A stretch of DNA of 22,939 nucleotides from a virus (Duplodnaviria; Heunggongvirae; Uroviricota; Caudoviricetes). The notes beneath the pieces were generated by a model. It was not told the DNA's origin. It did no database searches and saw only the letters and a list, made by a program, of their open reading frames with translations. This document shows positions 1-21,231 of the stretch, one piece after another. Both the position numbers and the translations under genes were made by a program. The stretch is from positions 1 to 22,939 of the IMG/VR virus record IMGVR_UViG_2671181100_000006. The stretch is one strand, 5' to 3'. The stretch's first letter is position 1; each line of letters opens with the position of its first letter.

Positions 1-1167
1 GTGGCCCTTAGTGATACCAAACTCCGTAGCATCAATGCTAAGCCATACAGCGGCGCAGCTGAGGTCACAGATGGTGACGGGCTAAGTGTACGCATAACTC
101 CCACAGGCACGATCACATTCCAGTTTCGTTATCGCTGGAACGGTAAGCCCGTTCGCCTCTCCATTGGCCGCTATCCCGCTATGTCTCTCAAGGAGGCGCG
201 CGTTGTCGTCGGTGAGATGCGCGAATTGTACCTCAAGGGACTAAACCCGAAAAATTATTTTGCCAAAGAAGATGGCGAGCTGACTCTAAAAGAGTGCCTG
301 GATCAGTGGTGGAGCAAGTATGTTGAAACGCTGAAGCCGAACACTCAGACGCTGTACAAGTCAGTTGTGTACAACACGATGTACACAGAATTCCCGGACG
401 CTCCGGTAGTAAACATTCCTGTTTCGGCATGGGTGCGTTTCTTTGATAAGCAGGAAAAGAAGAACAGCAAAAAGGCCAGGGTGCTTCTTCTACAGCTACG
501 TTCCGTCATGAACTGGTGTATCAGCCGCCAGTTGATCCCATCGTGCGAGGTCCTGAAGCTTAGCGTTAAGACCATTGGCAAAAAACCTGATGTGGGTAGC
601 CGTGTTCTCACGTATACCGAATTGGCAAAAATCTGGCTGGCGCTGGAGAACAACAAGATCGTTACCTCCAACAAGGTGCTTCATCAGCTGCTTTTGCTTT
701 GGGGAGCCAGGCTATCAGAGCTGCGTCTAGCTACCGCCAGCGAATTCAACATGGATGATCTTATCTGGACGACGCCAGGAGAGCATTCCAAGATGGGTAA
801 CGTTATCCGTCGACCGGTGTTCGATCAGGTGAAACCTTTTGTTGAAAGACTCCTCAATGCAGGAAACGATGTTCTGTTTCCTGGCCAGGAACTGGACAAG
901 CCTATAGATCGCTCGTCAGCAAATCTCTATATGAAAAAATTAAGGGATAAAATTGATATACCGGAATGGCGAACCCACGACTTCAGGCGCTCGCTTGTGA
1001 CGAATTTATCAGGGGAAGGGGTTATGCCCCATGTCACCGAAAAAATGTTGGGGCATGAACTGGGGGGCGTGATGGCGGTGTATAACAAACATGATTGGCT
1101 TGATGAGCAGAAAGAAGCATATCAATTATATGCAGACAAAATTTTATGGTACGTTAAGAAATTATGA
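1..1167 (+). CDS. int: Tyrosine recombinase / phage integrase, P4-type with N-terminal DUF4102-like arm-binding domain
   Basis: 388-aa ORF beginning with GTG at window position 1. The N-terminus (MALSDTKLR...TDGDGLSVRITPTGTITFQFRYRWNGK...) matches the characteristic start of P4-family integrases; the C-terminus carries catalytic-region motifs (HDFRRS...GH...Y). The true start could lie upstream of the window, but the N-terminus looks complete. Confidence 0.85.
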   Translation: MALSDTKLRSINAKPYSGAAEVTDGDGLSVRITPTGTITFQFRYRWNGKPVRLSIGRYPAMSLKEARVVVGEMRELYLKGLNPKNYFAKEDGELTLKECLDQWWSKYVETLKPNTQTLYKSVVYNTMYTEFPDAPVVNIPVSAWVRFFDKQEKKNSKKARVLLLQLRSVMNWCISRQLIPSCEVLKLSVKTIGKKPDVGSRVLTYTELAKIWLALENNKIVTSNKVLHQLLLLWGARLSELRLATASEFNMDDLIWTTPGEHSKMGNVIRRPVFDQVKPFVERLLNAGNDVLFPGQELDKPIDRSSANLYMKKLRDKIDIPEWRTHDFRRSLVTNLSGEGVMPHVTEKMLGHELGGVMAVYNKHDWLDEQKEAYQLYADKILWYVKKL

Positions 1168-1225: not shown

Positions 1226-2539
1226 ATGAGCGGTGGGGTTGAGCTTAATATAGATGTCATGAAAGCACTAAGGTGGCTTGCAGAAACGACTACTGACCCT
1301 CAAGGATTTTCCGAGAGATTGGAAGTCGCTCAGGATAACTATATTAAAGAAACATCAAAGAAGGTGAATTTTGGTGCCCCGTTTGACAAAAGTTGGTATG
1401 GCGATGATGTTGTCGCTGGTTTTTTTTCGCAAGCGAAGTCTTTAATTGATAATCGACGAGCATTTGAAATATCTACCGCGTCACAAATCATTCCTTGGGT
1501 TAAACAATTAGGTCAAAACGTAAAGATTCTTAATGAAATATCAGGAGCTAAAGAGCGGGCTAAAAGAATGCTCGATAGCACCAGTGTTTATCCAGATACA
1601 GCATTGTTTGAATTAATACTTGCAGGGAATTATGCCTCAATGGGATATGAGGTTGAGTTTATTCCTGAACGAAAGGGAATTGCAAAAACCCCGGAATTTA
1701 AATGTAGTTATGATGGCGGAGTGGAGTTTTTTGTTGAATGTAAAAGACTCCAAAAAGGGTCATATGCAATCCAGGAAGAACATACACACTTAATCAGAGC
1801 CCATTTGGCAGAACTTCGAATCCATTCTAAAAGGATGAGTGTCTGGATGGATGTGACCTATAAAACTGAAGTTAAAGAGACTCCTGATAATTATCTTTTG
1901 AATCATTTAAGTAACTATTATGGGAAAGATTACTCCTGGGATGATGATTTTGGTGTTGGATTTGTAAAAGCAGTGAATTTAAATTCGGCAAAATATGATG
2001 TGGAAGTTAACGGTTCACTTTCGTTTCATAGTAAACTAGCGAGGTTACTGAAAGGTAATCCGATTGGTGATGATTTTTATAATATCTTTGCGTCTGGTAG
2101 GCCTGATGAGCGTGATCAACGGTTTATTTCAAAAATTAAATACGCATCTTTGTTGACATGGCGTTGTATTAATGAAAAATCTTTGGATTGTCGTTCTCGG
2201 CATATTAAAAGCACATTGGCTGAAATAGAAAAACAAATTTCTAATAATGGGCTTGGTGTTGGTCATGTTGCAATAGATGCTGATATTCAAAAGGATGTTG
2301 CAGATAAGCGGCGTGAGAAAAATCTTGAGGTTACGAAATCATTTAAGCTTGAGTCAAAGCTTGTACGGTTAAATATTCATTACCTTGTCCAACGTATAGA
2401 AGAAAGTCATTCTTGGATGGTTGATGAAACTCTTGACTATTTTTATACCGATAAGCTCATAGAGTATTTTATTCCAGCTGTTCAAATATTTCCTGATGCC
2501 GATGAATTTAACAACGACCTGCCAGGTTGGCATCAATGA
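1226..2539 (+). CDS. Hypothetical 437-aa protein; AT-rich cargo gene between int and xis; possible PD-(D/E)xK-like nuclease core (speculative)
   Basis: Long uninterrupted ORF with RBS GAGGAAATGAT before the ATG. Codon usage is conspicuously A/T-rich compared with the flanking integrase and early-operon genes. No family recognised by eye. Segment ...GYEVEF...CSYDGGVEFFVECKRL... has an E/D...D...ExK arrangement. Confidence 0.7.
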   Translation: MSGGVELNIDVMKALRWLAETTTDPQGFSERLEVAQDNYIKETSKKVNFGAPFDKSWYGDDVVAGFFSQAKSLIDNRRAFEISTASQIIPWVKQLGQNVKILNEISGAKERAKRMLDSTSVYPDTALFELILAGNYASMGYEVEFIPERKGIAKTPEFKCSYDGGVEFFVECKRLQKGSYAIQEEHTHLIRAHLAELRIHSKRMSVWMDVTYKTEVKETPDNYLLNHLSNYYGKDYSWDDDFGVGFVKAVNLNSAKYDVEVNGSLSFHSKLARLLKGNPIGDDFYNIFASGRPDERDQRFISKIKYASLLTWRCINEKSLDCRSRHIKSTLAEIEKQISNNGLGVGHVAIDADIQKDVADKRREKNLEVTKSFKLESKLVRLNIHYLVQRIEESHSWMVDETLDYFYTDKLIEYFIPAVQIFPDADEFNNDLPGWHQ

Positions 2540-2544
2540 TCAGT

Positions 2545-2574
2545 TGAGTGCAACCCCGTTAATGGTTGCACTCA
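2545..2574. terminator. Strong hairpin between convergent genes (11-bp perfect stem TGAGTGCAACC / GGTTGCACTCA, 8-nt loop); possible bidirectional terminator
   Basis: Perfect inverted repeat read directly from the sequence, 6 nt after the cargo stop codon and 6 nt before the 3' end of the minus-strand excisionase gene. No clear U-tract on either side, so a terminator role is uncertain. Confidence 0.3.
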
Positions 2575-2579
2575 CTTGC

Positions 2580-2765
2580 CTATGAATGTTTATTTATTCC
2601 TCCTTCATCTATCCAGCGGGTAACTGCTTTTCTACTATAACGAGTAGGATATGTTAGAACGGGTTGTGGAAAACCATGTTCTTTCCGTAATCTCCAAACG
2701 GCTGTTTTTTTCTTGCCCAACAGGTTAAAAACTTCCTGCTCTTCCATAAAATCATTCGCAGTCAT
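2580..2765 (-). CDS. xis: AlpA/Xis-family excisionase-like DNA-binding protein
   Basis: 61-aa basic protein (MTANDFMEEQEVFNLLGKKKTAVWRLRKEHGFPQPV...RWIDEGG) with the helix-turn-helix signature typical of AlpA/excisionase proteins partnering P4-type integrases. GAGGT RBS upstream. Confidence 0.7.
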   Translation of the reverse strand: MTANDFMEEQEVFNLLGKKKTAVWRLRKEHGFPQPVLTYPTRYSRKAVTRWIDEGGINKHS

Positions 2766-2787
2766 AAATTACCTCAATAATTCATTT

Positions 2788-3345
2788 TTACGCCCGAATC
2801 AAACGCTGCCAGATTGCGGAAACGTATTTAGCCTGGTGTTTGGCATCAGCAAGCGCGTTATGCATATCGCCCTCAAACGGTATGTCGCGGCGCGGATTGA
2901 TGCCAATCGCTCGACCTAATTCAACGATTGTTCGGACATCACGATCATTCCAAAATTTCCATATGCAGGGCATATACTCACGGTCATAGCTGGCCCGAAG
3001 GATTACATTGTCAAACGTAGCGCCATTACCCCAGACCTGAACTTTTTCTGGGTCGGCGTTATCACGTATGAAGCAATTCAAATTGCTCAATGCAGTAACA
3101 AGATTCATAGCCGCGTCTTTATCGCAAATGGCCTTTCGGGCCTCTTCGCTTTGCTGCATCCACCAAATAATCGTTTCAGGGTCAGGAATGGCACCGCCGT
3201 CTACTGCGCTTTTAAGGCTGACTACTCTGTAGAATTCCTCTCCGAGTTCGCCAGTTGAGGGCTCAAAAAAAACCGCACCGATGGAGACGATAGGGGCGTT
3301 TGGTTTATTGCCCATTGTTTCGAGGTCGATCATGAGGTTATTCAT
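2788..3345 (-). CDS. DnaQ-like DEDDh 3'-5' exonuclease (phage early exonuclease)
   Basis: Motifs IDLETMG (D-x-E), FDNVIL and HNALADA (H-x4-D). Start placed at the internal ATG (MNNLMIDLE...) preceded by AGGAG. Start overlaps the stop of the upstream gene (ATGA). Confidence 0.75.
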   Translation of the reverse strand: MNNLMIDLETMGNKPNAPIVSIGAVFFEPSTGELGEEFYRVVSLKSAVDGGAIPDPETIIWWMQQSEEARKAICDKDAAMNLVTALSNLNCFIRDNADPEKVQVWGNGATFDNVILRASYDREYMPCIWKFWNDRDVRTIVELGRAIGINPRRDIPFEGDMHNALADAKHQAKYVSAIWQRLIRA

Positions 3346-3725
3346 TTTTTCTCCTGCTGCGGTGCCGCTGGCAATGCGCATACTTCAACCGCTTTTTGAT
3401 AAATGAGTTTGATTGTCGGCCAGTCGATGGTCTGGTCTTCATGCCAGTCACCTCGCCCCTCACAATCGCCACAGCCGTCACCGTCACATTCAGGACAGAT
3501 GACCACACGGGGAATGCTGAACTCACCAGATAAAGCGTACTTTGCGCCGTTTTCGGCAGTCAGTTTCTTCGGCACCATCACGTAACCATCCCGAATTACA
3601 GGAGGGTTGCCAACTTTGCGGCGCTCCCTATCCAAGTCTGTTTGCAACTGAATCACCCAGCGAGCGAGTTCACCTTTTTCACCGGATTCAAGACGTAAAT
3701 CATCCAAACGATATTTATCAATCAT
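3342..3725 (-). CDS. Hypothetical protein with Cys-rich cluster (CPECDGDGCGDCEGRG), possible zinc ribbon
   Basis: ORF on the track is 3342-3782. I place the start at the internal ATG (MIDKYRLDD...) to minimise overlap with the upstream gene; start is uncertain. Confidence 0.5.
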   Translation of the reverse strand: MIDKYRLDDLRLESGEKGELARWVIQLQTDLDRERRKVGNPPVIRDGYVMVPKKLTAENGAKYALSGEFSIPRVVICPECDGDGCGDCEGRGDWHEDQTIDWPTIKLIYQKAVEVCALPAAPQQEKK

Positions 3726-4386
3726 TGCTGTTATCCTCACAGCAGTGGTGCCGCCCCTCTGGGTCAGTGGATACATGTCCACAGATATCGCACTCTATTT
3801 CATCCAGCACTACCGACGCTAGCTGCTCTTTGATGTGCAATCGCGGCTCACCATCTTTCGGCTCAGGCCACACCCGCGCCTTATTCACCGCTAGTTTTTC
3901 AATCATCGCCTTAGTGATTTGCTCGTCAGTGATACCGGCGCGGCGTTGGGCATCCCATAGCAGAAACTGCAAATCGGCCCACTCGCTGAGGTCGCCTGGT
4001 GCTGCTGCGGCTTCCAGCGCTTCTTTGCTTAAGTGTTTCAGTGGACCAATCGGGCCGACATTACCAAAGGTGGCCTGAGACCACGCGGTGTGCTCGCGGC
4101 GAACGTGCTCGCGGTCCGGCGCTGGCTGCGGTATGGCGTAGAGTTGCGCACCAAAGTCAGGAAGTTCGCCAGTGACCTGGACGAACTTTTGTTTACCTCC
4201 GTCAATTCCTAGCGGGTAGTAAGCTCTAATCTCTGCCACCGGCTCACTGTCCATTTCGGCCAGCGCGATGCGAGCCAGCTCCTCGGCCTCTTCAGCTGGC
4301 AGCATGACGTTGCTTCCGGCTCCGTAGGTTTCACGCCATGACTTAATTTTTTCCAGACGTTCTCTGGTTATGATTGATTGGGTCAT
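3718..4386 (-). CDS. MazG-like nucleotide pyrophosphohydrolase-type protein (DUF550 / dATP-dGTP pyrophosphohydrolase-like)
   Basis: 222 aa with AAGGAG RBS. C-terminal region (...SKEALEAAAAPGDLSEWADLQFLLWDAQRRAGITDEQITKAMIEKLAVNKARVWPEP...) resembles MazG-type all-alpha NTP pyrophosphohydrolase segments seen in prophage proteins. Assignment from memory, not a search. Confidence 0.5.
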   Translation of the reverse strand: MTQSIITRERLEKIKSWRETYGAGSNVMLPAEEAEELARIALAEMDSEPVAEIRAYYPLGIDGGKQKFVQVTGELPDFGAQLYAIPQPAPDREHVRREHTAWSQATFGNVGPIGPLKHLSKEALEAAAAPGDLSEWADLQFLLWDAQRRAGITDEQITKAMIEKLAVNKARVWPEPKDGEPRLHIKEQLASVVLDEIECDICGHVSTDPEGRHHCCEDNSND

Positions 4387-5456
4387 TAGCTGGACTCCTT
4401 ATCATTAGTTACAGATAAGTTTTTATTCACGATGGCATCCATCAATCGTGATGCAGCAGCCTTCTGGGCAGAGACATTGGCAATGACCGTTGGCCTGGAT
4501 TTCTCGCAGCTGGCGCAAATACCATCCCATGATGAAATGAGGAAGAAATCTTCACGATCGGCAATGCCGGTATTCATTACCAGGTCCTCAATCATCAGCG
4601 TGACCCCGCGAACTCCCCGGCCTTCACTTAACCTCTGTACTGCGTAGCCGAAGGCGTTAATCATCACAGCATGGAACTGGATGTACTCGCGTTTGTACTC
4701 AGCCTGATTCGTACCTCGGCGAATATCATCTAAACCAGTCAGCATCAGCCAAGCATTCCACAACCCCTCAAGATCATCCTGTGAGCAGGAATCTGAAAAT
4801 TTTGCCGTGGCATCACTAAGGGCTTTGAAGCTGACCCACTTATCACTTTTCGCAGGAACGACGTTATGCTCAAAATCGGTGACTTCAGAAAAGACGTCGT
4901 GTGAACTGATAAAACTGACCATCTCCTGCGCGTTCTTATCGCGCCCGTTATAGGCCATGTTGATAGCCGCAGATGGCTTCGAAACATTGTTGTTAATGTC
5001 GGAAAAGAACTGCTGCCGTGTTTTCAACGAGAGCTTATGTGTGAGCATTAGTGGTACGTGGATTGGTTCGCCAACTGTGCGGCAAAATTCGGCGATCCCC
5101 GCTGCACGGTGCTGGCCGTCGAAAAGCTTAATTTCTGCATCCATAGGGAAGCGCACAACACCAACGTTGGTATTGCCGAATTCCTGAAACTCAATCTCAG
5201 AGTTACAGTTACCGACCAGCGGTGGGATAATGAAGGGCTCTTTATTTTCGTGAGCATTAACCAGATATTCATAGAATTTCTTAGCACGCGCTGGGTTAAT
5301 TTCACGCTGAGAACGTTCTAAAGTATCTCCGTAATTATCACTGGCGAGGACGCGTGCCAAGGTTCGTGCTGGCACTGTCATCATAAGGACAATCGCTCCG
5401 CCCTGAACGCCGCGAGACGCAGGGAACTCAAAGAAATAATCTCCAACTATGCTCAT
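4386..5456 (-). CDS. DGQHR-domain protein (DndB-like, ParB/Srx superfamily)
   Basis: Contains the literal DGQHR motif (KLFDGQHRAAGI). Start placed at the ATG (MSIVGDYFF...) rather than the upstream GTG on the ORF track. Stop overlaps the start of the downstream gene by 1 nt. Confidence 0.7.
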   Translation of the reverse strand: MSIVGDYFFEFPASRGVQGGAIVLMMTVPARTLARVLASDNYGDTLERSQREINPARAKKFYEYLVNAHENKEPFIIPPLVGNCNSEIEFQEFGNTNVGVVRFPMDAEIKLFDGQHRAAGIAEFCRTVGEPIHVPLMLTHKLSLKTRQQFFSDINNNVSKPSAAINMAYNGRDKNAQEMVSFISSHDVFSEVTDFEHNVVPAKSDKWVSFKALSDATAKFSDSCSQDDLEGLWNAWLMLTGLDDIRRGTNQAEYKREYIQFHAVMINAFGYAVQRLSEGRGVRGVTLMIEDLVMNTGIADREDFFLISSWDGICASCEKSRPTVIANVSAQKAAASRLMDAIVNKNLSVTNDKESS

Positions 5457-5587
5457 GCTACCCACCACTCAATAAACATGCAGATACCAACGGTTACTAC
5501 GGCAATAAGCACCCAGCAGATCACATCGAACAAGGCGGCGAACCGACGTAGGGTGTATTTGCTATAATTCTCATGATCAATATTCAT
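5453..5587 (-). CDS. Small hydrophobic peptide (44 aa, predicted single transmembrane helix), not on the ORF track
   Basis: My own translation of the minus strand: MNIDHENYSKYTLRRFAALFDVICWVLIAVVTVGICMFIEWWVA. Its ATG overlaps the ParB-like stop (ATGA) and its TGA overlaps the DGQHR start (ATGA), suggesting translational coupling. Confidence 0.4.
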   Translation of the reverse strand: MNIDHENYSKYTLRRFAALFDVICWVLIAVVTVGICMFIEWWVA

Positions 5588-6369
5588 ACCGCCTCCCCAA
5601 TCACCCAACGAAGTGCGCTTGCATACTCACCCTCGGCTGATTCAAGGGCTTTGATGATTTCTTTGCGGGTTTTCAGGCGCGGCTTTGCCTCGCCGAGGAT
5701 CTGACGCTGACGCCGGGCTTTTTCATGGCCGGTTGTGCCAGCAGTTGCCGCTTCGATTTCAGAGACCTTCTCCCGCTGCTCTTCTGGTTTAAGCGATGCC
5801 AGCTGACGCGCCTGGGTAACGGTGACCGTTCCGGACTCCACTGCATCGCGAACAGCCTGGGTGGCATCCAGCAGAGACAGAGTTGCGCGTACGGTCTGGA
5901 CACTCACGCCAAACATCAGCGCTAAATCGTCCTCGTCGTGCCCGCGTTCCAGCGCATCAGCCATTTTCTTTGCTCGGCCCAGTGGCGTATCTGCCTGGCG
6001 GATTTCGTTAGCACTTACCATCGCCTGCGCCATGCGAACGGCGGAGCCACGTTTAGCGACTGCTGGAACCAGTAACGGTTCTTTGCCCTCTTTCGACAGA
6101 CGCTTGTTGGCTTCCAGTGTATGGCGCACACGCTGGCGACCATCGACTACACAAGACAGCCCTGTCTCCGGGTCTTTCCAGACGATAATCGGCTCAAGAA
6201 CGCCCTGGTCCATGATGTTCAGCACCATTGCCTCGCTGATAGGCAGGTGGATACGCTCATCGTAAAGCGGGTGCGTTTTGTCGGTAACCAGGTGCAGGTT
6301 TTCAGGTTCGAACGTCAAAACGTTCGTTTTGCCACTCGCGCCATATACCAGCTTTGAGTCTTTAGCCAT
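5584..6369 (-). CDS. ParB-like N-terminal domain protein (ParB/Srx nuclease-like fold plus helix-turn-helix)
   Basis: Motif ...GVLEPIIVWKDPETGLSCVVDGRQRVRHTLEA... matches the ParB box region (GERRxRAA-like). A downstream HTH-like segment (DLALMFGVSVQTVRATLSLL) follows. Confidence 0.7.
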   Translation of the reverse strand: MAKDSKLVYGASGKTNVLTFEPENLHLVTDKTHPLYDERIHLPISEAMVLNIMDQGVLEPIIVWKDPETGLSCVVDGRQRVRHTLEANKRLSKEGKEPLLVPAVAKRGSAVRMAQAMVSANEIRQADTPLGRAKKMADALERGHDEDDLALMFGVSVQTVRATLSLLDATQAVRDAVESGTVTVTQARQLASLKPEEQREKVSEIEAATAGTTGHEKARRQRQILGEAKPRLKTRKEIIKALESAEGEYASALRWVIGEAV

Positions 6370-8424: not shown

Positions 8425-9120
8425 CTATCCATGCCGTTTAAAGGACTGAGACTGGCTTATTAAAACCTTTCCATAGATATAGAATCTGTGTTCATTCTCT
8501 TTAGTTATATTCCATTCTCTATAACGAGGGTTATCAGAGATGACTAGCAGTTGGTCTGGTATCATCTGCAGGCGTTTAACATAAACTTTTCCATCAAAAC
8601 CAAAGACGTAAATCCCATCCCCATCGAACTCATTGATAGTTACGTCCACAAAGATTAGGTCGCCAGGCTCAATCGTTGAGGCCATGCTATCACCGCGAAC
8701 GTTGATGACCTTTACTCCAGATGGAGTCCTGCCACCAAACATTGCCAATGCCTGATCATTGCTGAACTCGATAGCATGAATGACATCTATGACGTCACTA
8801 CCGTGTATATGTCCTGCCCCGGCGCTTGCGCTCACATCAAGTACCTCGACTCTGTATACATCCACATCCTTTACGGGAGATGCATATTTTTCACTGTTTA
8901 TATGTACAGTAGTATCATTTTCGTCAGAGGTAAATAGGTCAGGTACACTTACGCTTAAAGCTTGAGCAAGTCGGTTAAGTGTCTGTTCTGAAAACTGCTT
9001 TTGTTTACCAGTTTCAAGCCTGGAAATATTGGCAGCATCAACGCCCACAGCTTCTGCAAGCTCTGCGATTTTAATGTTCTTCGCTAAGCGAAGTTGTCGT
9101 ATGCGAGATCCTATTTTCAT
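8425..9120 (-). CDS. cI: CI-like prophage repressor (XRE-type HTH plus S24 LexA-like autopeptidase domain)
   Basis: N-terminal HTH (IRQLRLAKNIKIAELAEAVGVDAANISRLETG) and C-terminal S24 motifs (GDSM...VKRL). Divergent from cro across an operator-containing intergenic region. Confidence 0.85.
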   Translation of the reverse strand: MKIGSRIRQLRLAKNIKIAELAEAVGVDAANISRLETGKQKQFSEQTLNRLAQALSVSVPDLFTSDENDTTVHINSEKYASPVKDVDVYRVEVLDVSASAGAGHIHGSDVIDVIHAIEFSNDQALAMFGGRTPSGVKVINVRGDSMASTIEPGDLIFVDVTINEFDGDGIYVFGFDGKVYVKRLQMIPDQLLVISDNPRYREWNITKENEHRFYIYGKVLISQSQSFKRHG

Positions 9121-10373: not shown

Positions 10374-11331
10374 ATTAACAGGATACGTCTGGGACGCTTG
10401 CGCATCTTCGGGGATGAAACTATCCAGCGTGGCAATCATGGCGCGCCTGGCTGACTTCAGCAACGATGAGGGTGTTTGCTGGCCTTCTATCGCGACCATA
10501 TCCCGTCAGATTGGCGCTGGTGAAAGTACTGTCAGAACGGCGATAACTGCGCTTGAGAAAGAGGGATGGCTCACCCGTACGCAACGCCGCAATGGCAACC
10601 GTAATGCATCGAACGTCTACCAGCTCAACGTTTCCAAACTACAGAAAGCGGCATTTTCTCACCTGTCAGTTTCTGACACGTCAAAATCTGACACATCAAA
10701 ATCTGAACCGTCAAAATCTGATGCGTCAAAAATTGACCCCTCAAAATTTGAGGCGTCGGAATCCACCAAAAAAACCAGTTTTGACCCGTCAGAATCTGGG
10801 GGGGATCCGTCAGTAAAATCAACTACTGATCCATCAGATATAAATCCTTCTTGTCCGGACGCTTCGCAACCGGACGAACAGGGCTCTGCTGATGAATTTC
10901 TGTCACGACATCCTGACGCGGTGGTGTACAGCGCTGCAAAGCGGCAGTGGGGCAGCCAGGACGATTTAACCTGCGCCCAGTTCATTTGGGGAAAAATTAT
11001 CAGCATGTACGAACTGGCTGCTGAAAGTGATGGTGAGGTAGTTCGCCCTAAAGAACCAAACTGGACCGCATGGGCGAATGAGGTTCGCCTGATGGTGATG
11101 CAGGACGGGAGAACCCATAAGCAAATTTGCTCACTGTTCAAGCGCGCCAACAAAGATTCGTTCTGGTGTAAAAACGTACTCAGCCCGTCGAAGCTTCGGG
11201 AAAAATGGGATGAGCTGTCGTTAAAACTATCTGCTCCACTCAATAGCTCCCGCCAGGAGTCGTCCATTTCGCGAGCCAGCTTCGATGGGGTTGATTACTC
11301 ATTGCCAGAAAACTCGGGGTTCCGCACATGA
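10363..11331 (+). CDS. Replication initiator (lambda O-like) with N-terminal winged-helix DNA-binding domain and internal origin iterons
   Basis: N-terminal HTH-like region (SVAIMARLADFSNDEGVCWPSIATISRQIGAGESTVRTAITALEKEGWL). Low-complexity linker encoded by tandem 15-bp DNA repeats. Position after cII matches O. Confidence 0.65.
   Translation: MSTKLTGYVWDACASSGMKLSSVAIMARLADFSNDEGVCWPSIATISRQIGAGESTVRTAITALEKEGWLTRTQRRNGNRNASNVYQLNVSKLQKAAFSHLSVSDTSKSDTSKSEPSKSDASKIDPSKFEASESTKKTSFDPSESGGDPSVKSTTDPSDINPSCPDASQPDEQGSADEFLSRHPDAVVYSAAKRQWGSQDDLTCAQFIWGKIISMYELAAESDGEVVRPKEPNWTAWANEVRLMVMQDGRTHKQICSLFKRANKDSFWCKNVLSPSKLREKWDELSLKLSAPLNSSRQESSISRASFDGVDYSLPENSGFRT
10666..10755 (+). repeat. Putative replication origin: six tandem ~15-bp iterons (TCAAAATCTGAnnnn) followed by an A/T-rich tract, embedded in the initiator ORF
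   Basis: Units read directly: tcagtttctgacacg / tcaaaatctgacaca / tcaaaatctgaaccg / tcaaaatctgatgcg / tcaaaaattgacccc / tcaaaatttgaggcg, then caccaaaaaaaccagtttt. Same layout as ori-lambda inside gene O. Confidence 0.6.
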
Positions 11332-12137
11332 GTAAGCCATTTCTCAAATGGGCTGGTGGAAAGTATACCCAGCTGGCTGACCTGTTCGTGCATATCCCGG
11401 CAGGGAAACGCCTGATAGAGCCATTCGTTGGTGGTGGGTCGGTATTCCTGAACAGCGAAAAGCACGCAGATTACCTGCTGGCGGACGTTAACCCAGACCT
11501 GATTAATCTGTATCAGATGTTAGCGGTGGTGCCGGATGAAGTGGAATTAAAGGCCCGCTGGATGTTTGAGCACATGCGGTCACCAGATGGCTATGAGCTG
11601 ATCCGTTCCGAGTTCAACGCTCAGACGCTGGATGCTACTGAACGCGCAGCTGCATTCCTGTATCTCAACCGGCATTGTTTCAATGGCCTGATGCGCTACA
11701 ACCAGGCGAATAAGTTCAATGTGGGCTGGGGAGGCTACAAGGCCCCGTATTACCCGATGGATGAGATGAAAGCCTTTGCGGCTATGGCGCATAACTGCGT
11801 ATTCATGACCGCTGATTACCGTCGGACAATCAGCCTGGCCGGGAAAGGGGATGTGGTTTACTGCGATCCGCCTTACGAACCGATGCCGGGAACAGCCGGA
11901 TTCACTGCCTACGCCGCTGGTGGGTTTAACTGGGAGAACCAGGTAGACCTGGCGAAGCAATGTGTATCAGCCTTTCACCGTGGGGCTCGGGTAGTGATTT
12001 CTAACTCATCCGCCCCGAAGGTTCTCGACCTGTACCGGGAGCATGGTTTTAACCTGCAATTCATCAAAGCGCGCCGTTCGATCTCCTGCAAAAGCAGTAC
12101 GCGGGAAGTCGCAAAAGACGTTGTAGCGATCCTTTAA
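11328..12137 (+). CDS. dam: DNA adenine N6-methyltransferase (Dam-like, D12 class), orphan phage methylase
   Basis: Motifs KWAGGK, FVGGGSV (AdoMet binding) and DPPY (catalytic). No adjacent restriction endonuclease gene. Confidence 0.85.
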   Translation: MSKPFLKWAGGKYTQLADLFVHIPAGKRLIEPFVGGGSVFLNSEKHADYLLADVNPDLINLYQMLAVVPDEVELKARWMFEHMRSPDGYELIRSEFNAQTLDATERAAAFLYLNRHCFNGLMRYNQANKFNVGWGGYKAPYYPMDEMKAFAAMAHNCVFMTADYRRTISLAGKGDVVYCDPPYEPMPGTAGFTAYAAGGFNWENQVDLAKQCVSAFHRGARVVISNSSAPKVLDLYREHGFNLQFIKARRSISCKSSTREVAKDVVAIL

Positions 12138-12536: not shown

Positions 12537-13517
12537 ATGAGAGCACTACTAACCCCTGAGATTGCCCCACGCATGGGCGTTGTTCTGCTTCGCCCAGGCG
12601 CTGATCTCATGCCGATGTTCAGGAGAGGGCGGGTACTGATTGAGCCTGCACCGGAAAAATACAGCGACTACGCAACCGGCGCTATCCCTCCCGCCACGCA
12701 GCCACTGGCAGAAGACCCGGTTTTGAAGCCAGTCTTCGAAAACAAAGACGTCATTCTGCGCGCGGGTGGTATCAGCTCGCTGGAGGCCGAGCTGGAGCGT
12801 CGTTTTGAATGCCAGTATCCGCATGGCTCGTGGCACAGCGAAAATTTTACGCTGTTCCGGCATGAGCCTGGCAGCATCCGCCTTTGCTGGGCCTGCGATA
12901 ACCTGGTGCGTGATCAGTACACAGAGACGCTGGCAGGCATTGCGCGTGGGAACCTGGTATCCTGGTTGATAACGGTCATCCGCTCACAGCTGGGGTTCAA
13001 CGAAGACCATCAACTGACGATCCCAGAGTTGTGCTGGTGGCTGGTAATAAACAATCTGGCGCACGTCATCCCTGAATCGCTGGCCCGGAAAGCCCTGCGA
13101 TTGCCGGAAATAAAGCATCAACCGGTGATGAAGGAGAGCGATATTGTGCCGGAGCCAGCGGCGAGCGAAGTGGTGCAGAAAAAGATTCTCGGTCTTCGCG
13201 TAGATCCTGAAACGCCGGAATCATTTATGCTGCGACCAAAGCGCCGCCGCTGGGTAAACGAGAGCTGGACGCGCTGGGTTAAGTCTCAGTCGTGTGTCTG
13301 CTGTAACAAACAAGCAGATGATCCCCATCACCTGATAGGCCACGGACAAGGTGGAATGGGAACAAAAGCGCATGACCTGTTTGTGTTGCCGCTTTGCAGA
13401 GCGCATCACGACGAGTTGCACGCTGACACCGTGGCATTTGAGGAGAAGCACGGCTCACAGCTGGAGCTGCTGTTTCGATTTCTGGATCGTTCGCTGGCAA
13501 TTAGCGTGCTGGCATAG
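12537..13517 (+). CDS. Phage protein with C-terminal DUF968-like / HNH-like Cys-His motif
   Basis: C-terminus CVCCNKQADDPHHLIGHGQGGMGTKAHDLFVLPLCRAHHDELH resembles HNH/DUF968 zinc-binding regions common in lambdoid nin regions. Assignment from memory. Confidence 0.5.
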   Translation: MRALLTPEIAPRMGVVLLRPGADLMPMFRRGRVLIEPAPEKYSDYATGAIPPATQPLAEDPVLKPVFENKDVILRAGGISSLEAELERRFECQYPHGSWHSENFTLFRHEPGSIRLCWACDNLVRDQYTETLAGIARGNLVSWLITVIRSQLGFNEDHQLTIPELCWWLVINNLAHVIPESLARKALRLPEIKHQPVMKESDIVPEPAASEVVQKKILGLRVDPETPESFMLRPKRRRWVNESWTRWVKSQSCVCCNKQADDPHHLIGHGQGGMGTKAHDLFVLPLCRAHHDELHADTVAFEEKHGSQLELLFRFLDRSLAISVLA

Positions 13518-13530
13518 TGGAGAACGCATA

Positions 13531-14109
13531 ATGATTAACCCGTCCGAGGTTGGAAAAGCTGGTGAAATGGTCAGGCTGAAAACGCTGGAGGCCATCTGGA
13601 TTCAGGGGAAGCTGCGCATGTGGGGCCGCTGGTCTTACATCGGCGGCGGTAGTGGCGGCAATATGTTTAACCAGTTACTGGCTTCCGGGAAAGTCACTAA
13701 AACAGCCATCAACGAAGCATTACGCCGGATGAAGAAGTCCGGCATCTCGAAGCCAGAGCTTGAGGCGTTTTTTCGTGAAATACTCGCGGGGAAAAACAAA
13801 AGCGGCCTGGCCTTCTGTACAGACGATGAAGGACTGCTGATTGATAAGGTACTGGGGGCAGTCCTCATTACGGGTGGTCATAAAGAGCTATACCACCTGC
13901 TGGTGGAGCATTACCGGTTACGGAAGAGCAAACGCCGCATAGCGGAAGAGCTCTATGAAAAGCATCCAGACTGGTGCTTTATGACATGCAGACGAAGAGT
14001 TGATACATGGCTAAGTTTGGCAGAATCGATGCTGTACGCACCAATGTGTGACGCATTCGGCACAAATGGCGACAGATTTTACTTGCAAAGTGAGCCAGAA
14101 ACTGCTTGA
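13531..14109 (+). CDS. Q: Late-gene antiterminator Q (phage 82-type family)
   Basis: Start placed at the ATG (MINPSEV...) with GGAG RBS, in frame with the longer track ORF. Motif KLRMWGRW resembles the ERWGAW signature of phage 82-type Q proteins. Followed by a terminator. Confidence 0.65.
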   Translation: MINPSEVGKAGEMVRLKTLEAIWIQGKLRMWGRWSYIGGGSGGNMFNQLLASGKVTKTAINEALRRMKKSGISKPELEAFFREILAGKNKSGLAFCTDDEGLLIDKVLGAVLITGGHKELYHLLVEHYRLRKSKRRIAEELYEKHPDWCFMTCRRRVDTWLSLAESMLYAPMCDAFGTNGDRFYLQSEPETA

Positions 14110-17575: not shown

Positions 17576-17614
17576 GCATTACAGCAGGCATTCACTGAGT
17601 GCCTGTGATAATGC
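17576..17614. repeat. Copy 2 of the stem-loop element (GCATTACAGc-AGGCAttcactgagTGCCTg-TGATAATGC)
   Basis: Same outer inverted repeat. Inner stem is AGGCA/TGCCT, a compensatory G-C swap relative to copy 1 that preserves pairing. Begins right after the stop codon of the 17329-17574 gene. Confidence 0.6.
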
Positions 17615-17679
17615 CGTGCTCAATTGCGGTACTGTTGTTTCCCCTGTTAATCTGTCCCAAACAAACCGATGGGGATAGG

Positions 17680-18060
17680 GACGTGAAAAAGTTACTTTTT
17701 GCAGCATTAATTGGTGTTTCAGCTTTAACAATTACCGCATGTGCGCCAACAGTCCAGAAAGTAGATTACAACCAGAGATCAATGCTTTTATCTCTTGGAA
17801 TGAATAAAAACGACGTCATGCAGATCATGGGGTCGCCACGCAGGACTGATGTGAACCAGGAACGCGAACGCTGGATATACTGGAATAAGGCTCTCTATGG
17901 TTACACAATCATTGATAACGAACAATTGGCTAACGATCGACTGGTTATAACGTTCGTTAATGGTAAGGTCACCAAGTGGGGTCAGCAAACGCTGACTGAT
18001 GACATAATGGAGTCATCACAAAAGAGTGCACAGGCTTATGCTGAGGCATTCAAGAAATAG
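17680..18060 (+). CDS. Phage lipoprotein, BamE/SmpA-OmlA-like (moron)
   Basis: Start at GTG (MKKLLFAALIGVSALTITAC...) giving a signal peptide plus lipobox ITAC; the longer track ORF start is unlikely. BamE-like assignment (...LSLGMNKNDVMQIMGSPRR...ERWIYW...) is from memory. Confidence 0.55.
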   Translation, partial: DVKKLLFAALIGVSALTITACAPTVQKVDYNQRSMLLSLGMNKNDVMQIMGSPRRTDVNQERERWIYWNKALYGYTIIDNEQLANDRLVITFVNGKVTKWGQQTLTDDIMESSQKSAQAYAEAFKK

Positions 18061-18079
18061 ACATTTCAGTCAAATGATA

Positions 18080-18104
18080 ACCTCGCTTTGGCGGGGTTTT
18101 TTTA
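18080..18104 (+). terminator. Rho-independent terminator
   Basis: CCTCGC-tttg-GCGGGG (one G-U wobble) followed by T8. Confidence 0.6.
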
Positions 18105-18125: not shown

Positions 18126-18311
18126 ATGAGCTTTAAACATGAACTTGGTCAGGTGGTAACCGTTACTATCAGTGAAGAAAAAGGGCATATCAAAGCTCGC
18201 GCTGAATATACGCATAGCCCCAATCAGTACCTTATTCATTATCACGCAGCAGACGGGCGAGCTGTAGACGCATGGTTTGAAGAAGGGGAGCTGTCTCCAT
18301 CTGCACTGTAG
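18126..18311 (+). CDS. Hypothetical small protein (61 aa)
   Basis: RBS AAAGAGG; compact ORF between a terminator and copy 3 of the stem-loop element. Confidence 0.5.
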   Translation: MSFKHELGQVVTVTISEEKGHIKARAEYTHSPNQYLIHYHAADGRAVDAWFEEGELSPSAL

Positions 18312-18317
18312 ACGCAC

Positions 18318-18360
18318 GCATTACAGAAGCCCTTCACATTGCGAGGAGCTTTGATAATGC
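18318..18360. repeat. Copy 3 of the stem-loop element (GCATTACAG-AAGCCCttcacattgcgagGAGCTTt-GATAATGC), more diverged
   Basis: Same outer GCATTACAG...GATAATGC arms. Inner region has an insertion and one stem mismatch. Begins 7 nt after the stop of the 18126-18311 gene. Confidence 0.5.
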
Positions 18361-18498
18361 GAATGAATATCATTATCGATGGATGGAAGGGGGTGTGTAG
18401 ACGTTTAGATGTCTAAATGTCTACATGGTCGATTTCTCCTGGCAATGTGCAAATGATAGTCATTATCATTTAAGGGTCCTCCCAGAGGGGGAGGTTAC

Positions 18499-18520
18499 CA
18501 CGGGGCGGCGGACTCGCGGA
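18499..18520. other. Candidate cosN (cohesive-end site); predicted 12-nt cohesive end GGGCGGCGGACT at 18503-18514
   Basis: CACGGGGCGGCGGACTCGCGG matches the phage lambda cosN region as I recall it (TACGGGGCGGCGACCTCGCGG) at 18 of 21 positions. Lies ~115 bp upstream of the Nu1-like small terminase gene, the lambda arrangement. Confidence 0.55.
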
Positions 18521-18631
18521 AAACGGCTAGTTTTCATTTTTCATAGTCATCATCATCATGTGCACAGGTTATTGATTTTCCAGATGTCGGATTTTCAATG
18601 ATGTCGAATCGTATAAAAAGTGTTCACCATC

Positions 18632-19123
18632 ATGGATCAGGAAATCGCTACTTTAAAACTCAATATCAACCAGCTTGCCGGGATTACTGGCGTACACCGG
18701 CAGACCGTCGCTACCAGGCTAAAAAATGTCAGTCCCGCCCAGGGAAGCAACAGCAAACTTAAGTTGTATCTTGTCACCGATATTCTGACAGAATTAATGA
18801 TCCCGACGGTTTCCTCATCGAATCTTGAAGAGATGACACCCCCTGATCGCCTCGCTCACTGGAAAGCAGAAAACGAGCGGTTGAAATTTGAAGTAGATAC
18901 CAAACAACTTATCCCCGCCGAAGACGTCGCACGTGAATTTTCAATGATGGCGAAAGCCGTCGTCATGGTACTTGAAACACTTCCGGACATTCTTGAGCGC
19001 GACTGTGCACTTACGCCGGTTGCGGTATCACGCGTGCAAAGCGTGATTGATGACCTGCGCGATCAGGTTGCCCAAAAAGTAATGGACGCTGAACCAGAGG
19101 AGGATGAGCCAGAGGAGGACTGA
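18632..19123 (+). CDS. Terminase small subunit (lambda Nu1-like, N-terminal winged HTH)
   Basis: N-terminus LKLNINQLAGITGVHRQTVATRL... parallels lambda Nu1 (VNKKQLADIFGASIRTIQNW...); acidic C-terminus. Start is ATG at 18632 or GTG at 18620. Stop overlaps the large-subunit start (ATGA). Confidence 0.7.
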   Translation: MDQEIATLKLNINQLAGITGVHRQTVATRLKNVSPAQGSNSKLKLYLVTDILTELMIPTVSSSNLEEMTPPDRLAHWKAENERLKFEVDTKQLIPAEDVAREFSMMAKAVVMVLETLPDILERDCALTPVAVSRVQSVIDDLRDQVAQKVMDAEPEEDEPEED

Positions 19124-21231
19124 TGACAAAACGGGCATCTGCCAGGGGGATACGCCGCGATGTCTCCGGTATTCTTCGTGCCCCACGTCGTATGCAGGTG
19201 GCCGATGCGGTCAGCTCATATATGCGTGTGCCGATGGGGGCGGGTAACTCCGTACCATGGGACCCCAATCTGGCCCCTTATATTATTGAGCCGATGAATT
19301 GTCTGGCATCCCGTGAATATGATGCGGTGGTGTTTGTCGGACCGGCCCGAACCGGGAAAACGATTGGCCTGATTGATGGCTGGATTGTCTACAACATCGT
19401 TTGTGATCCCGCTGACATGCTGGTTATTCAGGTCTCCGAAGAGAAAGCGCGTGAACATTCCAAGAAACGCCTCGATCGCACATTCCGGTGTAGTCCGGAA
19501 GTAAAATCGCGACTCAGTCCGCGTCGTAACGACAATAACGTTCACGACCGCACCTTCCGGGCCGGTAACTATCTCAAACTGGGCTGGCCGTCAGTCAACA
19601 TTATGTCGTCGTCAGACTATAAAAGCGTGGCGTTGACTGACTATGACCGCTTTCCTGAAGATATCGACGGGGAAGGTGATGCATTTTCCCTGGGTTCGAA
19701 ACGTACCACTACGTTTATGTCCAGCGGCATGACTCTGGTTGAGAGTTCACCTGGCCGAGATATTCGTGACACGAAATGGCGACCAAACACCGCACATGAG
19801 GCACCGCCGACTACCGGCATATTATCGTTGTTTAATCGTGGTGACCGCCGCCGCCTTTACTGGCCGTGTCCGCATTGCGGAGAATATTTTCAGCCGGAGG
19901 TAGCCAATATGACGGGCTACCGGGATTCCCTTGATCCCGTTGTGGCAAGTGAGTCTGCATATCTCCAGTGCCCGGCCTGCAAAGGCAGGATCACCGCAGA
20001 TATGAAACGTGAACTGAATATCCGCCATGTCTGGTTACGCGATGGAGAAAAAATAGATCGTGATGGCAACAGATTTGGGGAGCCGCGGCGATCACGCATC
20101 GCTTCATTCTGGATGGAGGGGCCTGCGGCTGCATATCAGACATGGTCGCAGATGATATACAAATTCCTGACTGCTGAGCAGGAATATGAGTCCACCCAGA
20201 GTGAAGAGACGCTGAAAACGGTAGTTAATACCGACTTTGGTCGGCCTTATCTACCCCGAGCCAGTCTCGAACAACGTAAGAGTGAGCTGCTCGAACGACG
20301 CGCTGAAGACGTGCCGAAGCGATCTGTACCAGATGGTGTGCTCTTTATGACTGCAACCGTTGATGTGCAGGGCGGTAAATCCCGTCGTTTCGTGGTTCAG
20401 GTGACTGGCTACGGTGAGCAGGGTGAGAGATGGCTGGTAGATCGCTACAACATCCGCCAGTCTCTGCGGGCAAACGAGCACGGTGAATGTTACTCCATCG
20501 ATCCGGCAAGTTACCCGGAAGACTGGGATTTACTTTTGTCTGACGTGTTCGAAAAGTCATGGCCCTTAGCGAGTAACCCGTCAAAACGCATGCGGCTCAT
20601 GGCGATGGCTGTCGATTCCGGCGGTGAGGATGGTGTCACCGATAACGCATATAAGTTCTGGCGTAAGTGCCGCCGGGATGGGCTTGGTAAAAAGATTTTC
20701 CTCTTCAAGGGCGACAGTGTCCGACGCTCAAAACTAATTACCCGAACATTTCCTGATAACACTGACAGATCAACTCGCCGGGCAAAAGCCGCTGGCGATG
20801 TGCCGCTTTACCTTCTTCAGACTGATGCGCTGAAAGATCAGGTGAATAACGCCCTGTGGCGAGAATCACCCGGCCCGAACTATGTGCATTTCCCTAAATG
20901 GCTCGGCAGCTGGTTTTACGATGAGCTGACCTATGAGGAACGTTCACCCGATGGAAAATGGAGCAAACCGGGCCGAGGTCCGAATGAAGCTTTCGATCTA
21001 CTCGTTTATGCCGATGCGCTGGCCATATTGCACGGATACGAAAAGATCAAATGGCCGGATGCGCCTGAATGGGCGAGGCGGACAACGTGGATCGAAGAAA
21101 GCACGCCGGAAACTGGCGAAGTGTCACCCACGTTATCAGCAAAAACGACCCATAGCAGAAAAAAACGGAAGGCAAATAAGCCGGATGTTGAAAACAATCC
21201 GTGGACTACATCATCAGGAGGCTGGGTGTGA
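19123..21231 (+). CDS. Terminase large subunit (lambda GpA-like)
   Basis: 702 aa. Recognisable similarity to lambda gpA: WPCPHCGEYF vs ACPHCGEEQY, VNTDFG vs VNTTLG, NEAFDLLVYADALA vs NEALDCFVYALAAL. RBS GAGGAGG. Confidence 0.9.
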   Translation: MTKRASARGIRRDVSGILRAPRRMQVADAVSSYMRVPMGAGNSVPWDPNLAPYIIEPMNCLASREYDAVVFVGPARTGKTIGLIDGWIVYNIVCDPADMLVIQVSEEKAREHSKKRLDRTFRCSPEVKSRLSPRRNDNNVHDRTFRAGNYLKLGWPSVNIMSSSDYKSVALTDYDRFPEDIDGEGDAFSLGSKRTTTFMSSGMTLVESSPGRDIRDTKWRPNTAHEAPPTTGILSLFNRGDRRRLYWPCPHCGEYFQPEVANMTGYRDSLDPVVASESAYLQCPACKGRITADMKRELNIRHVWLRDGEKIDRDGNRFGEPRRSRIASFWMEGPAAAYQTWSQMIYKFLTAEQEYESTQSEETLKTVVNTDFGRPYLPRASLEQRKSELLERRAEDVPKRSVPDGVLFMTATVDVQGGKSRRFVVQVTGYGEQGERWLVDRYNIRQSLRANEHGECYSIDPASYPEDWDLLLSDVFEKSWPLASNPSKRMRLMAMAVDSGGEDGVTDNAYKFWRKCRRDGLGKKIFLFKGDSVRRSKLITRTFPDNTDRSTRRAKAAGDVPLYLLQTDALKDQVNNALWRESPGPNYVHFPKWLGSWFYDELTYEERSPDGKWSKPGRGPNEAFDLLVYADALAILHGYEKIKWPDAPEWARRTTWIEESTPETGEVSPTLSAKTTHSRKKRKANKPDVENNPWTTSSGGWV

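Follow-up and report, generated by a model that had tools for sequence, protein, structure and literature searches.

What might a conspicuous palindrome be doing just upstream of the cohesive-end site (cos) of a lambdoid prophage? The question is raised by 22,939 nucleotides of a virus of the Caudoviricetes (positions 1 to 22,939 of IMG/VR record IMGVR_UViG_2671181100_000006, one strand), here called the window, which represents the left and central part of an integrated lambdoid prophage and in which a 30-bp imperfect palindrome is located in the 320-nt non-coding stretch from a 61-aa open reading frame (ORF) to the small-terminase gene (Table 1). The initial annotation offered two kinds of answer, a cosQ-type or accessory packaging element and a binding site for a host factor or regulator. 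The lambda-like cos is among the best-mapped of DNA sites, and MetJ counts as a regulator dedicated to the genes of methionine and S-adenosylmethionine (SAM). Judging from the sequence comparisons described here, we consider it on balance probable that the palindrome is a functional MetJ-binding site, consisting of three tandem met boxes in a lambdoid prophage. Given a functional MetJ site, a role as a transcriptional barrier or operator would be about an even call, and the full chain, MetJ site plus barrier role, is a tentative proposal that is more easily doubted than accepted.

The palindrome itself is real. TGTAGACGTTTAGATGTCTAAATGTCTACA is read at 18396-18425, and a repeat finder returned arms of 14 nt (18396-18409 and 18412-18425) that are complementary at 13/14 positions (93%) around a 2-nt centre, the single stem mismatch being G8/T23, together with direct repeats GATGTCTA at 8-nt spacing inside it. 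Scored by 14-nt arms, at least 13 matches and a gap of 0-6, it is the one palindrome of its quality in the window, and 40 dinucleotide shuffles gave none. The perfect outer arms (TGTAGAC/GTCTACA) and the repeated ATGTCTA units (18409-18415 and 18417-18423) that had been described for it are both there; the end assigned to it, 18430, overshoots the true one by 5 nt. Only the window has these outer arms and symmetry over all 30 bp, which in relatives is limited to the central ~18-26 bp. As a separate observation, the octamer TGTAGACG occurs in three copies, all on the plus strand and within 140 nt (18263-18270, 18307-18314 and 18396-18403), and is absent from the rest of the 22.9 kb; the expectation was 0.48. 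Two of the three are situated inside the 61-aa ORF or at its end, and each is no more than a lone met-box-like unit.

MetJ operators are built as tandem repeats of the met box, with the consensus AGACGTCT (PMC4239095), and at least two adjacent, in-register boxes resembling it are found at 18399-18422. The three boxes match the consensus at 7/8, 7/8 and 6/8 positions, which amounts to 20/24 for (AGACGTCT)3, as against 16-18/24 for the best three-box stretches of six E. coli K-12 operators, and window matches to (AGACGTCT)2 with up to 3 mismatches are confined to the array (0.03 expected). For a quantitative comparison we implemented the half-metbox weight matrix and thresholds of Augustus and Spicer 2011 (PMC3228920, Table 3), by which each box has to reach at least 1/4 of the consensus bits and the array at least the consensus total of 12.58 bits. 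The window contains one array above these published limits, the one at 18399-18422, with 31.3 bits (boxes of 10.7, 11.2 and 9.3), and the top score over 200 window shuffles was 20.0. In 34 kb of K-12 DNA the same matrix recovered the six known operators and zero others, scoring metJ/B at 31.2, metA at 27.2, metF at 24.9, metR/E at 21.1, metN at 20.4 and metC at 18.9, so that the phage array equals or exceeds the native E. coli operators. The flanking "boxes" GGGTGTGT and ACATGGTC fail to qualify, and the outer arms TGT/ACA therefore lie outside the operator proper. Like the phage array, the E. coli operators (metJ/metB, metA, metF, metC, metR/metE and metNIQ) have at least two tandem in-register boxes near the consensus, and the degeneracy is also common to both (G at position 1, T at 4, A at 2, and the junctions GTCT/AAAC and GTTT/GGAC). 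Other candidate binders, namely LexA, CRP, PurR/Cra, PhoB, ArcA, TyrR and IHF, were set aside for wrong spacing or a wrong core, and so was a phage-encoded ribbon-helix-helix protein, since no such domain was found among the window ORFs and the 61-aa ORF is missing beside arrays elsewhere.

If MetJ is the binder, the hosts should have it. The window consists of phage sequence with no host DNA; in a survey MetJ was found in 122/122 non-symbiotic Enterobacteriales species (PMC3228920). E. coli has near-identical prophages, and the relatives that carry an array have hosts in the Enterobacteriaceae (E. coli, Klebsiella, Phytobacter, Kosakonia, Atlantibacter and Superficieibacter). Conservation was followed in 165 related cos loci (~558 kb), retrieved through small-terminase similarity, a sample that is anchored on the terminase. 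In 86 of these (290 kb) there were 39 arrays in 38 loci, all in the slot upstream of cos and none elsewhere, either 96-111 nt ahead of cosN or at corresponding coordinates of the locus, with a second copy at -138 in L047. The other 79, from species-representative genomes (268 kb), added 9 arrays from 8 loci, every one of them in that slot; the hosts were Phytobacter, Klebsiella spallanzanii, Superficieibacter, Atlantibacter, Kosakonia and Ca. Symbiopectobacterium. Overall, 48/48 arrays occupy one slot upstream of cos, and ~46/165 loci carry an array. The whole genome of mEp043 (42.8 kb) has a single array, which is cos-proximal (GGACGTTT AGACGTCC), and a scan of the HK97 genome with the MetJ matrix gave none. 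A megablast of the 591-nt region against GenBank phages returned no match, and in sensitive blastn searches homology began just 3' of the palindrome; the view that the element is not conserved, which these searches had suggested, was overturned by direct inspection of the 165 loci. The suggestion of a binding site for a host factor or regulator thereby gains support in silico, the repeated ATGTCTA units corresponding to the 8-bp periodicity of a putative met-box array whose slot is conserved.

The pattern of substitutions tells the same story at the level of single boxes. Across 29 unique array versions the central box RGACGTCY hardly varies, a neighbour box on one side may decay (GGTCATTT in L031, AAAGAAAT in L065), in which case the other neighbour qualifies, and the substitutions seen are the second choices of the matrix (A1G, C4T, G2A), as in native metF GGACGTCT AAACGGAT. 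Mean pairwise identity within the window's family is 0.84 for the array, 0.64 and 0.63 for the spacers on its two sides, and 0.91-0.98 for the flanks. These figures bear on the possibility that the palindrome has no selected function, being a quasi-palindrome at a mosaic junction that was kept by descent and perfected by template switching, or else a part of a 19-aa ORF. Such an origin would suit the placement of the palindrome exactly where homology to known relatives starts, the hypervariable spacers and the lineage-specific outer arms, and the hypervariability of the spacers could reflect relaxed constraint, quasi-palindrome template switching or diversifying selection. However, an array that is better conserved than its spacers, a 31-bit match that 200 shuffles did not approach, and independent-looking arrays with other flanks and box numbers in other lineages are hard to reconcile with it, and we regard the absence of function as very unlikely.

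The small reading frame deserves a word of its own. The 19-aa ORF MRMNIIIDGWKGVCRRLDV (18357-18416) has a good Shine-Dalgarno sequence, GAGGAG, 8 nt before its ATG and ends with a TAA inside the array; its frame is kept in many relatives, where it also ends in the array (TAA, TGA or TAG at the same place), and in others it is truncated to 11 aa. A hairpin at ~18322-18352, upstream of this ORF, would sequester the Shine-Dalgarno sequence. As the main explanation, however, the ORF or a leader peptide was rejected, the array persisting in five loci (L005, L010, L016, L022 and L036) in which the ORF is truncated before it. The stop codons at the box junctions (TCTAAA, TCTAGA) are a by-product of the met-box consensus.

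Arrays of the same kind are found in other phage lineages. When IMG/VR was scanned for the core pattern GTTTRGACGTCTAAA, the matches comprised the expected cos contexts and, as positive controls, genuine host operators (e.g., upstream of metE in L240), as well as arrays of up to 6 boxes and 52 bits beside cos or the small-terminase gene of other lineages (lower part of Table 1). The array of L249 looks like a transferred copy of a window-type module, comprising the array and the Fur-box-like site E described below, rather than an independent origin, and among its HK97-like Terminase_4 relatives an upstream array is present in 2/80 only; L206 probably carries the same mobile module. The exact consensus (AGACGTCT)2 occurs at five loci in IMG/VR, none in a terminase context. 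In the four contigs L263-L266 the boxes are followed by GTATATATAAT repeats, and in the more distant relatives L269 and L270 their place upstream of the small-terminase gene is taken by repeated TTATCGCGATAA palindromes. Strong arrays also occur away from the terminase (L216 1116-1296, also in L174 and L196; L256 435-474; L247 ~1500-1600); they include a pair of arrays, separated by 160 bp, in the early intergenic DNA beside a cI/cro-like pair and, elsewhere, arrays of five boxes (51 bits) and seven boxes (45 bits). Taken as sequence matches, these findings suggest a wider phage use of met-box arrays, concentrated at the boundary of the packaging module.

Proximity to cos naturally raises the possibility that the palindrome serves packaging by the phage's own terminase, as a cosQ-like or accessory element or as extra R-like sites for the small terminase. 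cosN was placed by alignment to lambda and to the phages mEp043, mEp213, Kp4865-4, Eeyore, Flotzy and LLS, the annotated cohesive end of the latter being GGGCGGCGCGCT, and the distance of about 75 bp given for the palindrome is borne out by the 77 nt between its end and the overhang. cosQ is a highly conserved 7-bp site required for termination of packaging (PMC4669245), and its homologue GGGTCCT, invariant in the alignment with known relatives, stands outside the palindrome, 29 nt before the nick in the window, compared with 30 nt before the right end in lambda. The palindrome shares with lambda cosQ a position left of cosN in a lambda-like cos region with a gpA-family terminase, but it is 50-80 nt further upstream, has another sequence and is dispensable. 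This last point comes from 80 viral contigs with small terminases 80-100% identical to that of the window, among which six (L009, L015, L024-L027) with 99-100% identity have unrelated sequence at the palindrome position. Since such relatives with the same terminase do without the palindrome, it is not a required packaging element, and the cosQ-type or required accessory role that had been proposed for it falls, the more so as a separate cosQ is present; the absence of the element from phages with the same terminase is also the outcome that had been named beforehand as refuting that role. Nor does the array resemble cosB or its R sites, which lie to the right of cosN and co-vary with the small terminase. 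A terminase-specific site could draw on the closeness to cos in every lineage, on GATGTCNNAT repeats downstream of cosN, on GATGTC recurring at 18583 and 18600 in cosB, and on the lineage with arrays at a position equivalent to cosB, inside the genome end. However, the same array stands beside unrelated small terminases (DUF1441, Terminase_4, Terminase_2 and Nu1), which would not be expected of a terminase-specific site, and we consider this explanation the most improbable of those discussed here. Independently of the palindrome, cosB contains an invariant GTCATCATCATCA run (18546-18558) and two GATGTCGRAT repeats 17 nt apart (18583-18609), which are candidate small-terminase or host-factor sites for the DUF1441 type of terminase. 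A 58-aa ORF (18425-18601), which opens at the palindrome's 3' edge, spans cosQ and cosN and reaches into cosB, is probably spurious; similar small coding sequences over the cos region are annotated in GenBank records of relatives.

The array does not stand alone in its slot. Scored against the 19-bp consensus GATAATGATAATCATTATC with up to 3 mismatches, the window has two Fur-consensus matches (0.01 expected), the predicted sites A and E, one on each side of the array. Site E is kept in nearly all relatives, and lambda has a 16/19 match at 48447-48465 (L087 948-966), 8 nt upstream of its cosQ; we know of no description of these Fur-box-like matches.

Several points weigh against MetJ as the ligand, or at least against an operator of the ordinary kind. 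The entire MetJ case rests on sequence, and the array is facultative, being missing from many relatives; many of the loci that carry it share ancestry, and 48 arrays do not amount to 48 independent events. The matrix gives 14-20-bit false positives in conserved large-terminase coding sequence, replicated by homology (L276-L346, ~2640-2690, HK97-like), and two-box matches below ~20 bits can be coding-sequence coincidences multiplied in this way. No convincing conserved sigma-70 promoter was found at or adjoining the array, a scan giving a 9/12 minus-strand match at chance frequency, and a hand search of the module from site A to site E for conserved -35 and -10 elements brought up poor candidates only (TTGATA-N17-TATCGA, and a minus-strand GATAAT with an unconserved -35); one GenBank record of mEp043 has a leftward promoter in cosB, a purely computational annotation. 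The nearest downstream start codon, that of the small terminase, is 210 nt away and beyond cos, where operators are typically within ~75 bp, and at most ~300 bp, of the start of the regulated gene, and the neighbours are the 61-aa ORF, cos and the terminase genes instead of a gene of methionine or SAM metabolism or transport, the sole SAM-using gene of the window being that of a Dam-type methyltransferase 6 kb upstream of the array. Unlike the E. coli operators, then, the phage array sits in late-region non-coding DNA close to cosN, has Fur-box-like flanks and overlaps no identifiable promoter. Finally, folding is strand-biased in the window's family (-29.2 kcal/mol for the plus strand vs -16.2 for the minus strand), and asymmetries of the G.T type outnumber those of the A.C type by 68 to 14. 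Read from its sequence, the array has the defining features of a MetJ operator and misses the contextual ones, the promoter and the met gene; because of that, and because the evidence is of this kind, we describe it as MetJ-operator-like in a new context and not as a proven member of the regulon.

The strand bias could mean selection at the level of RNA, with the reservation that the lineages lack independence and that native met operators fold too. The corresponding alternative is a plus-strand RNA hairpin in a late or moron read-through transcript, where it would mark a processing site, stabilise the 3' end or serve as a structural element, with the likeness to met boxes incidental. A 66-nt stretch does fold well as RNA (-27.9 kcal/mol, z = -5.5), flanks lengthen the stem in several lineages, and terminator hairpins fill the slot in relatives that lack the array. 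Tandem palindromic boxes, however, fold by construction (consensus three-box -14.6, metF core -11.7, window core -10.1 kcal/mol). We found no covariation in either of the two hairpin registers tested: for the helix centred on box 2, 76.9% of cells were paired vs 79.0 +/- 1.3% in column shuffles, and for the one centred between boxes 1 and 2, 82.8% vs 82.7% with 0 double changes. It follows that primary sequence with 8-bp periodicity is conserved and not pairing, and a hairpin would need neither that periodicity nor the conserved identity of GACGTC. The best-folding register differs among relatives, symmetry beyond ~9-13 nt from the centre is not conserved, and many relatives have stems of 6-7 bp only. 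An Rfam search at E up to 1 gave no match on the element, its sub-threshold matches lying near the upstream terminator only, and a terminator scan did not call the element, whose stem is followed by CATGGTCGATTTCTCC with no U-tract. The pattern of conservation is as expected for a predicted MetJ site rather than for a structural RNA, and we hold the RNA hairpin to be unlikely.

A hint as to the role of the presumed MetJ site comes from what replaces it. Among array-less unique loci, 39/91 have an intrinsic terminator in the 170 nt before cosQ, vs 2/35 among array-bearing ones, a statistic that is weakened by phylogenetic non-independence, and array and terminator look like alternatives in one slot. 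Both the array and the moron-region terminators of relatives could stop transcription that is not antiterminated before it reaches cos and the terminase genes; the array differs in having no GC-rich stem with a U-tract, and any block would depend on protein and be conditional on SAM. In a SAM-replete enterobacterial host, MetJ-SAM dimers may bind one to each 8-bp box and cooperatively along the array, and with a Fur-box-like site 42-48 bp away on each side, Fur-type proteins would perhaps join the block. The result would be a protein block directly upstream of cosQ-cosN and the terminase genes. Less firmly, this block may act as a conditional barrier or operator that limits transcription from the moron region into cos and the terminase genes outside Q-driven late growth, and in late growth it would be overridden by Q-modified polymerase, which would make it the equivalent of the terminators of relatives.

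The same proteins could instead act on packaging, the MetJ-bound array, maybe together with Fur-type proteins, providing an IHF-like architecture or a "speed bump" for the motor before cosQ-cosN. What unites the arrays of the different lineages is that they lie near the genome end or cos, on one side or the other, rather than near a promoter, and a Fur-like site abuts cosQ even in lambda; a host factor at cos also has a precedent in IHF at site I1 (PMC4669245). Site I1 of lambda cosB and the array are alike in being sites, in the latter case putative, for a host DNA-binding protein near cos with an accessory and not a catalytic part, but I1 lies to the right of cosN between R sites and has an IHF consensus, whereas the array lies to the left, beyond cosQ, and matches MetJ. 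However, MetJ and Fur have no known precedent in packaging, the array is dispensable in relatives with the same terminase, arrays in early non-packaging regions (L216, L256) fit ordinary transcriptional use, and the anti-correlation with terminators points to transcription. An action on packaging therefore strikes us as quite unlikely, and the preferred reading remains that of a MetJ site with a possible part in transcription.

The genes around the array are those of a lambdoid prophage (Table 1), in which holin and endolysin genes precede the BamE-like lipoprotein moron and a lambda-type portal gene follows the large terminase. DUF1441 homologues in mEp043, Eeyore and Flotzy are annotated as terminase small subunit. 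The 61-aa ORF is 93-98% conserved within the window's family, but it is not required for the array, since the arrays of mEp043, L047 and L065 occur without it. Elsewhere in the window, the early-left region 2788-6369 (minus strand) encodes an Rv2179c-like 3'-5' exoribonuclease, a dATP/dGTP pyrophosphohydrolase, a DndB-like protein and a ParB-HTH protein, and may be a DNA-modification or anti-defence cluster. In one of the other contigs, L212, the large terminase (1763-3883) has an intein between its ATPase and nuclease domains (Pfam PT-HINT, Intein_splicing).

Table 1. Features of the window (positions in the 22,939-nt stretch) and, below them, met-box arrays of other phage lineages
Feature	Position or contig	Strand	Remarks
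Imperfect palindrome, 30 bp, TGTAGACGTTTAGATGTCTAAATGTCTACA	18396-18425		array plus 3-nt outer arms TGT/ACA
Three tandem 8-bp met boxes (putative)	18399-18422		AGACGTTT 18399-18406; AGATGTCT 18407-18414; AAATGTCT 18415-18422
Fur-box-like site A, GATAATGATATTCATTCGC	18359-18377	-	16/19 to Fur consensus; pairwise identity 0.92 in window's family
Hypervariable spacer B	18381-18398		between site A and array; mean pairwise identity 0.64
Hypervariable spacer D	18423-18446		between array and site E; mean pairwise identity 0.63
Fur-box-like site E, GCAAATGATAGTCATTATC	18449-18467	+	16/19; directly upstream of cosQ
cosQ homologue GGGTCCT	18474-18480	+	invariant in alignment with known relatives
cosN 12-nt cohesive end, GGGCGGCGGACT	18503-18514	+	aligned to lambda end and LLS annotated cohesive site
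Integrase	1-1167		
cI-like repressor	8425-9120	-	plus cro and cII-like gene
Replication genes; Dam-type methyltransferase	11328-12137 (methyltransferase)		
RusA; Q antiterminator	13351-14109 (Q)		
BamE-like lipoprotein moron	17599-18060		intrinsic terminator 18079-18098
61-aa ORF, no assigned function	18126-18311	+	"hypothetical protein" in E. coli prophages
Small terminase subunit, DUF1441 family	18632-19123	+	Pfam PF07278, E = 1.3e-40
Large terminase subunit, gpA family	19123-21231	+	Pfam GpA_ATPase and GpA_nuclease
Array, Nu1-like family	L206 and 11 relatives		upstream of small-terminase gene; cosQ/cosN-like site between
Array, Terminase_4 with HNH	L249		directly upstream of small-terminase gene
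Array, Terminase_2 with HNH	L191		weaker, 15-16 bits
Arrays, gpA-type phage	L189		29.6 and 20.7 bits
Arrays, Terminase_4 lineage	L263-L266 (four contigs), nt 1-190		same CCTT end; 2-6 boxes (up to 52.2 bits) 44-98 nt inside

A search of the literature for a link of MetJ to prophages, cos regions or terminase found nothing relevant, and the 2011 survey of the MetJ regulon names prophage only for mmuPM and KpLE2 (PMC3228920). It is tempting to generalize from the arrays of other lineages that phages of MetJ-bearing hosts repeatedly place strong arrays by cos or the small-terminase gene, coupling packaging or structural-gene expression to SAM (and iron) status, an idea that we put forward as speculative and on present comparisons rather unlikely. 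Conceivable forms of such a coupling are a safety lock on the terminase in lysogens, architectural or braking host repressors at cos and, because SAM-degrading enzymes of phages derepress the MetJ regulon (PMC7877911), a SAM-depletion timer in lytic phages. If MetJ does bind, its regulon would reach into prophages and include, beside cos, an operator that equals the strongest of E. coli, and the conserved Fur-box-like site adjoining cosQ, present even in lambda, would attract attention. It would also provide a testable link, unreported in the literature that we searched, between the one-carbon and SAM status of the host and the late functions or packaging of the phage.

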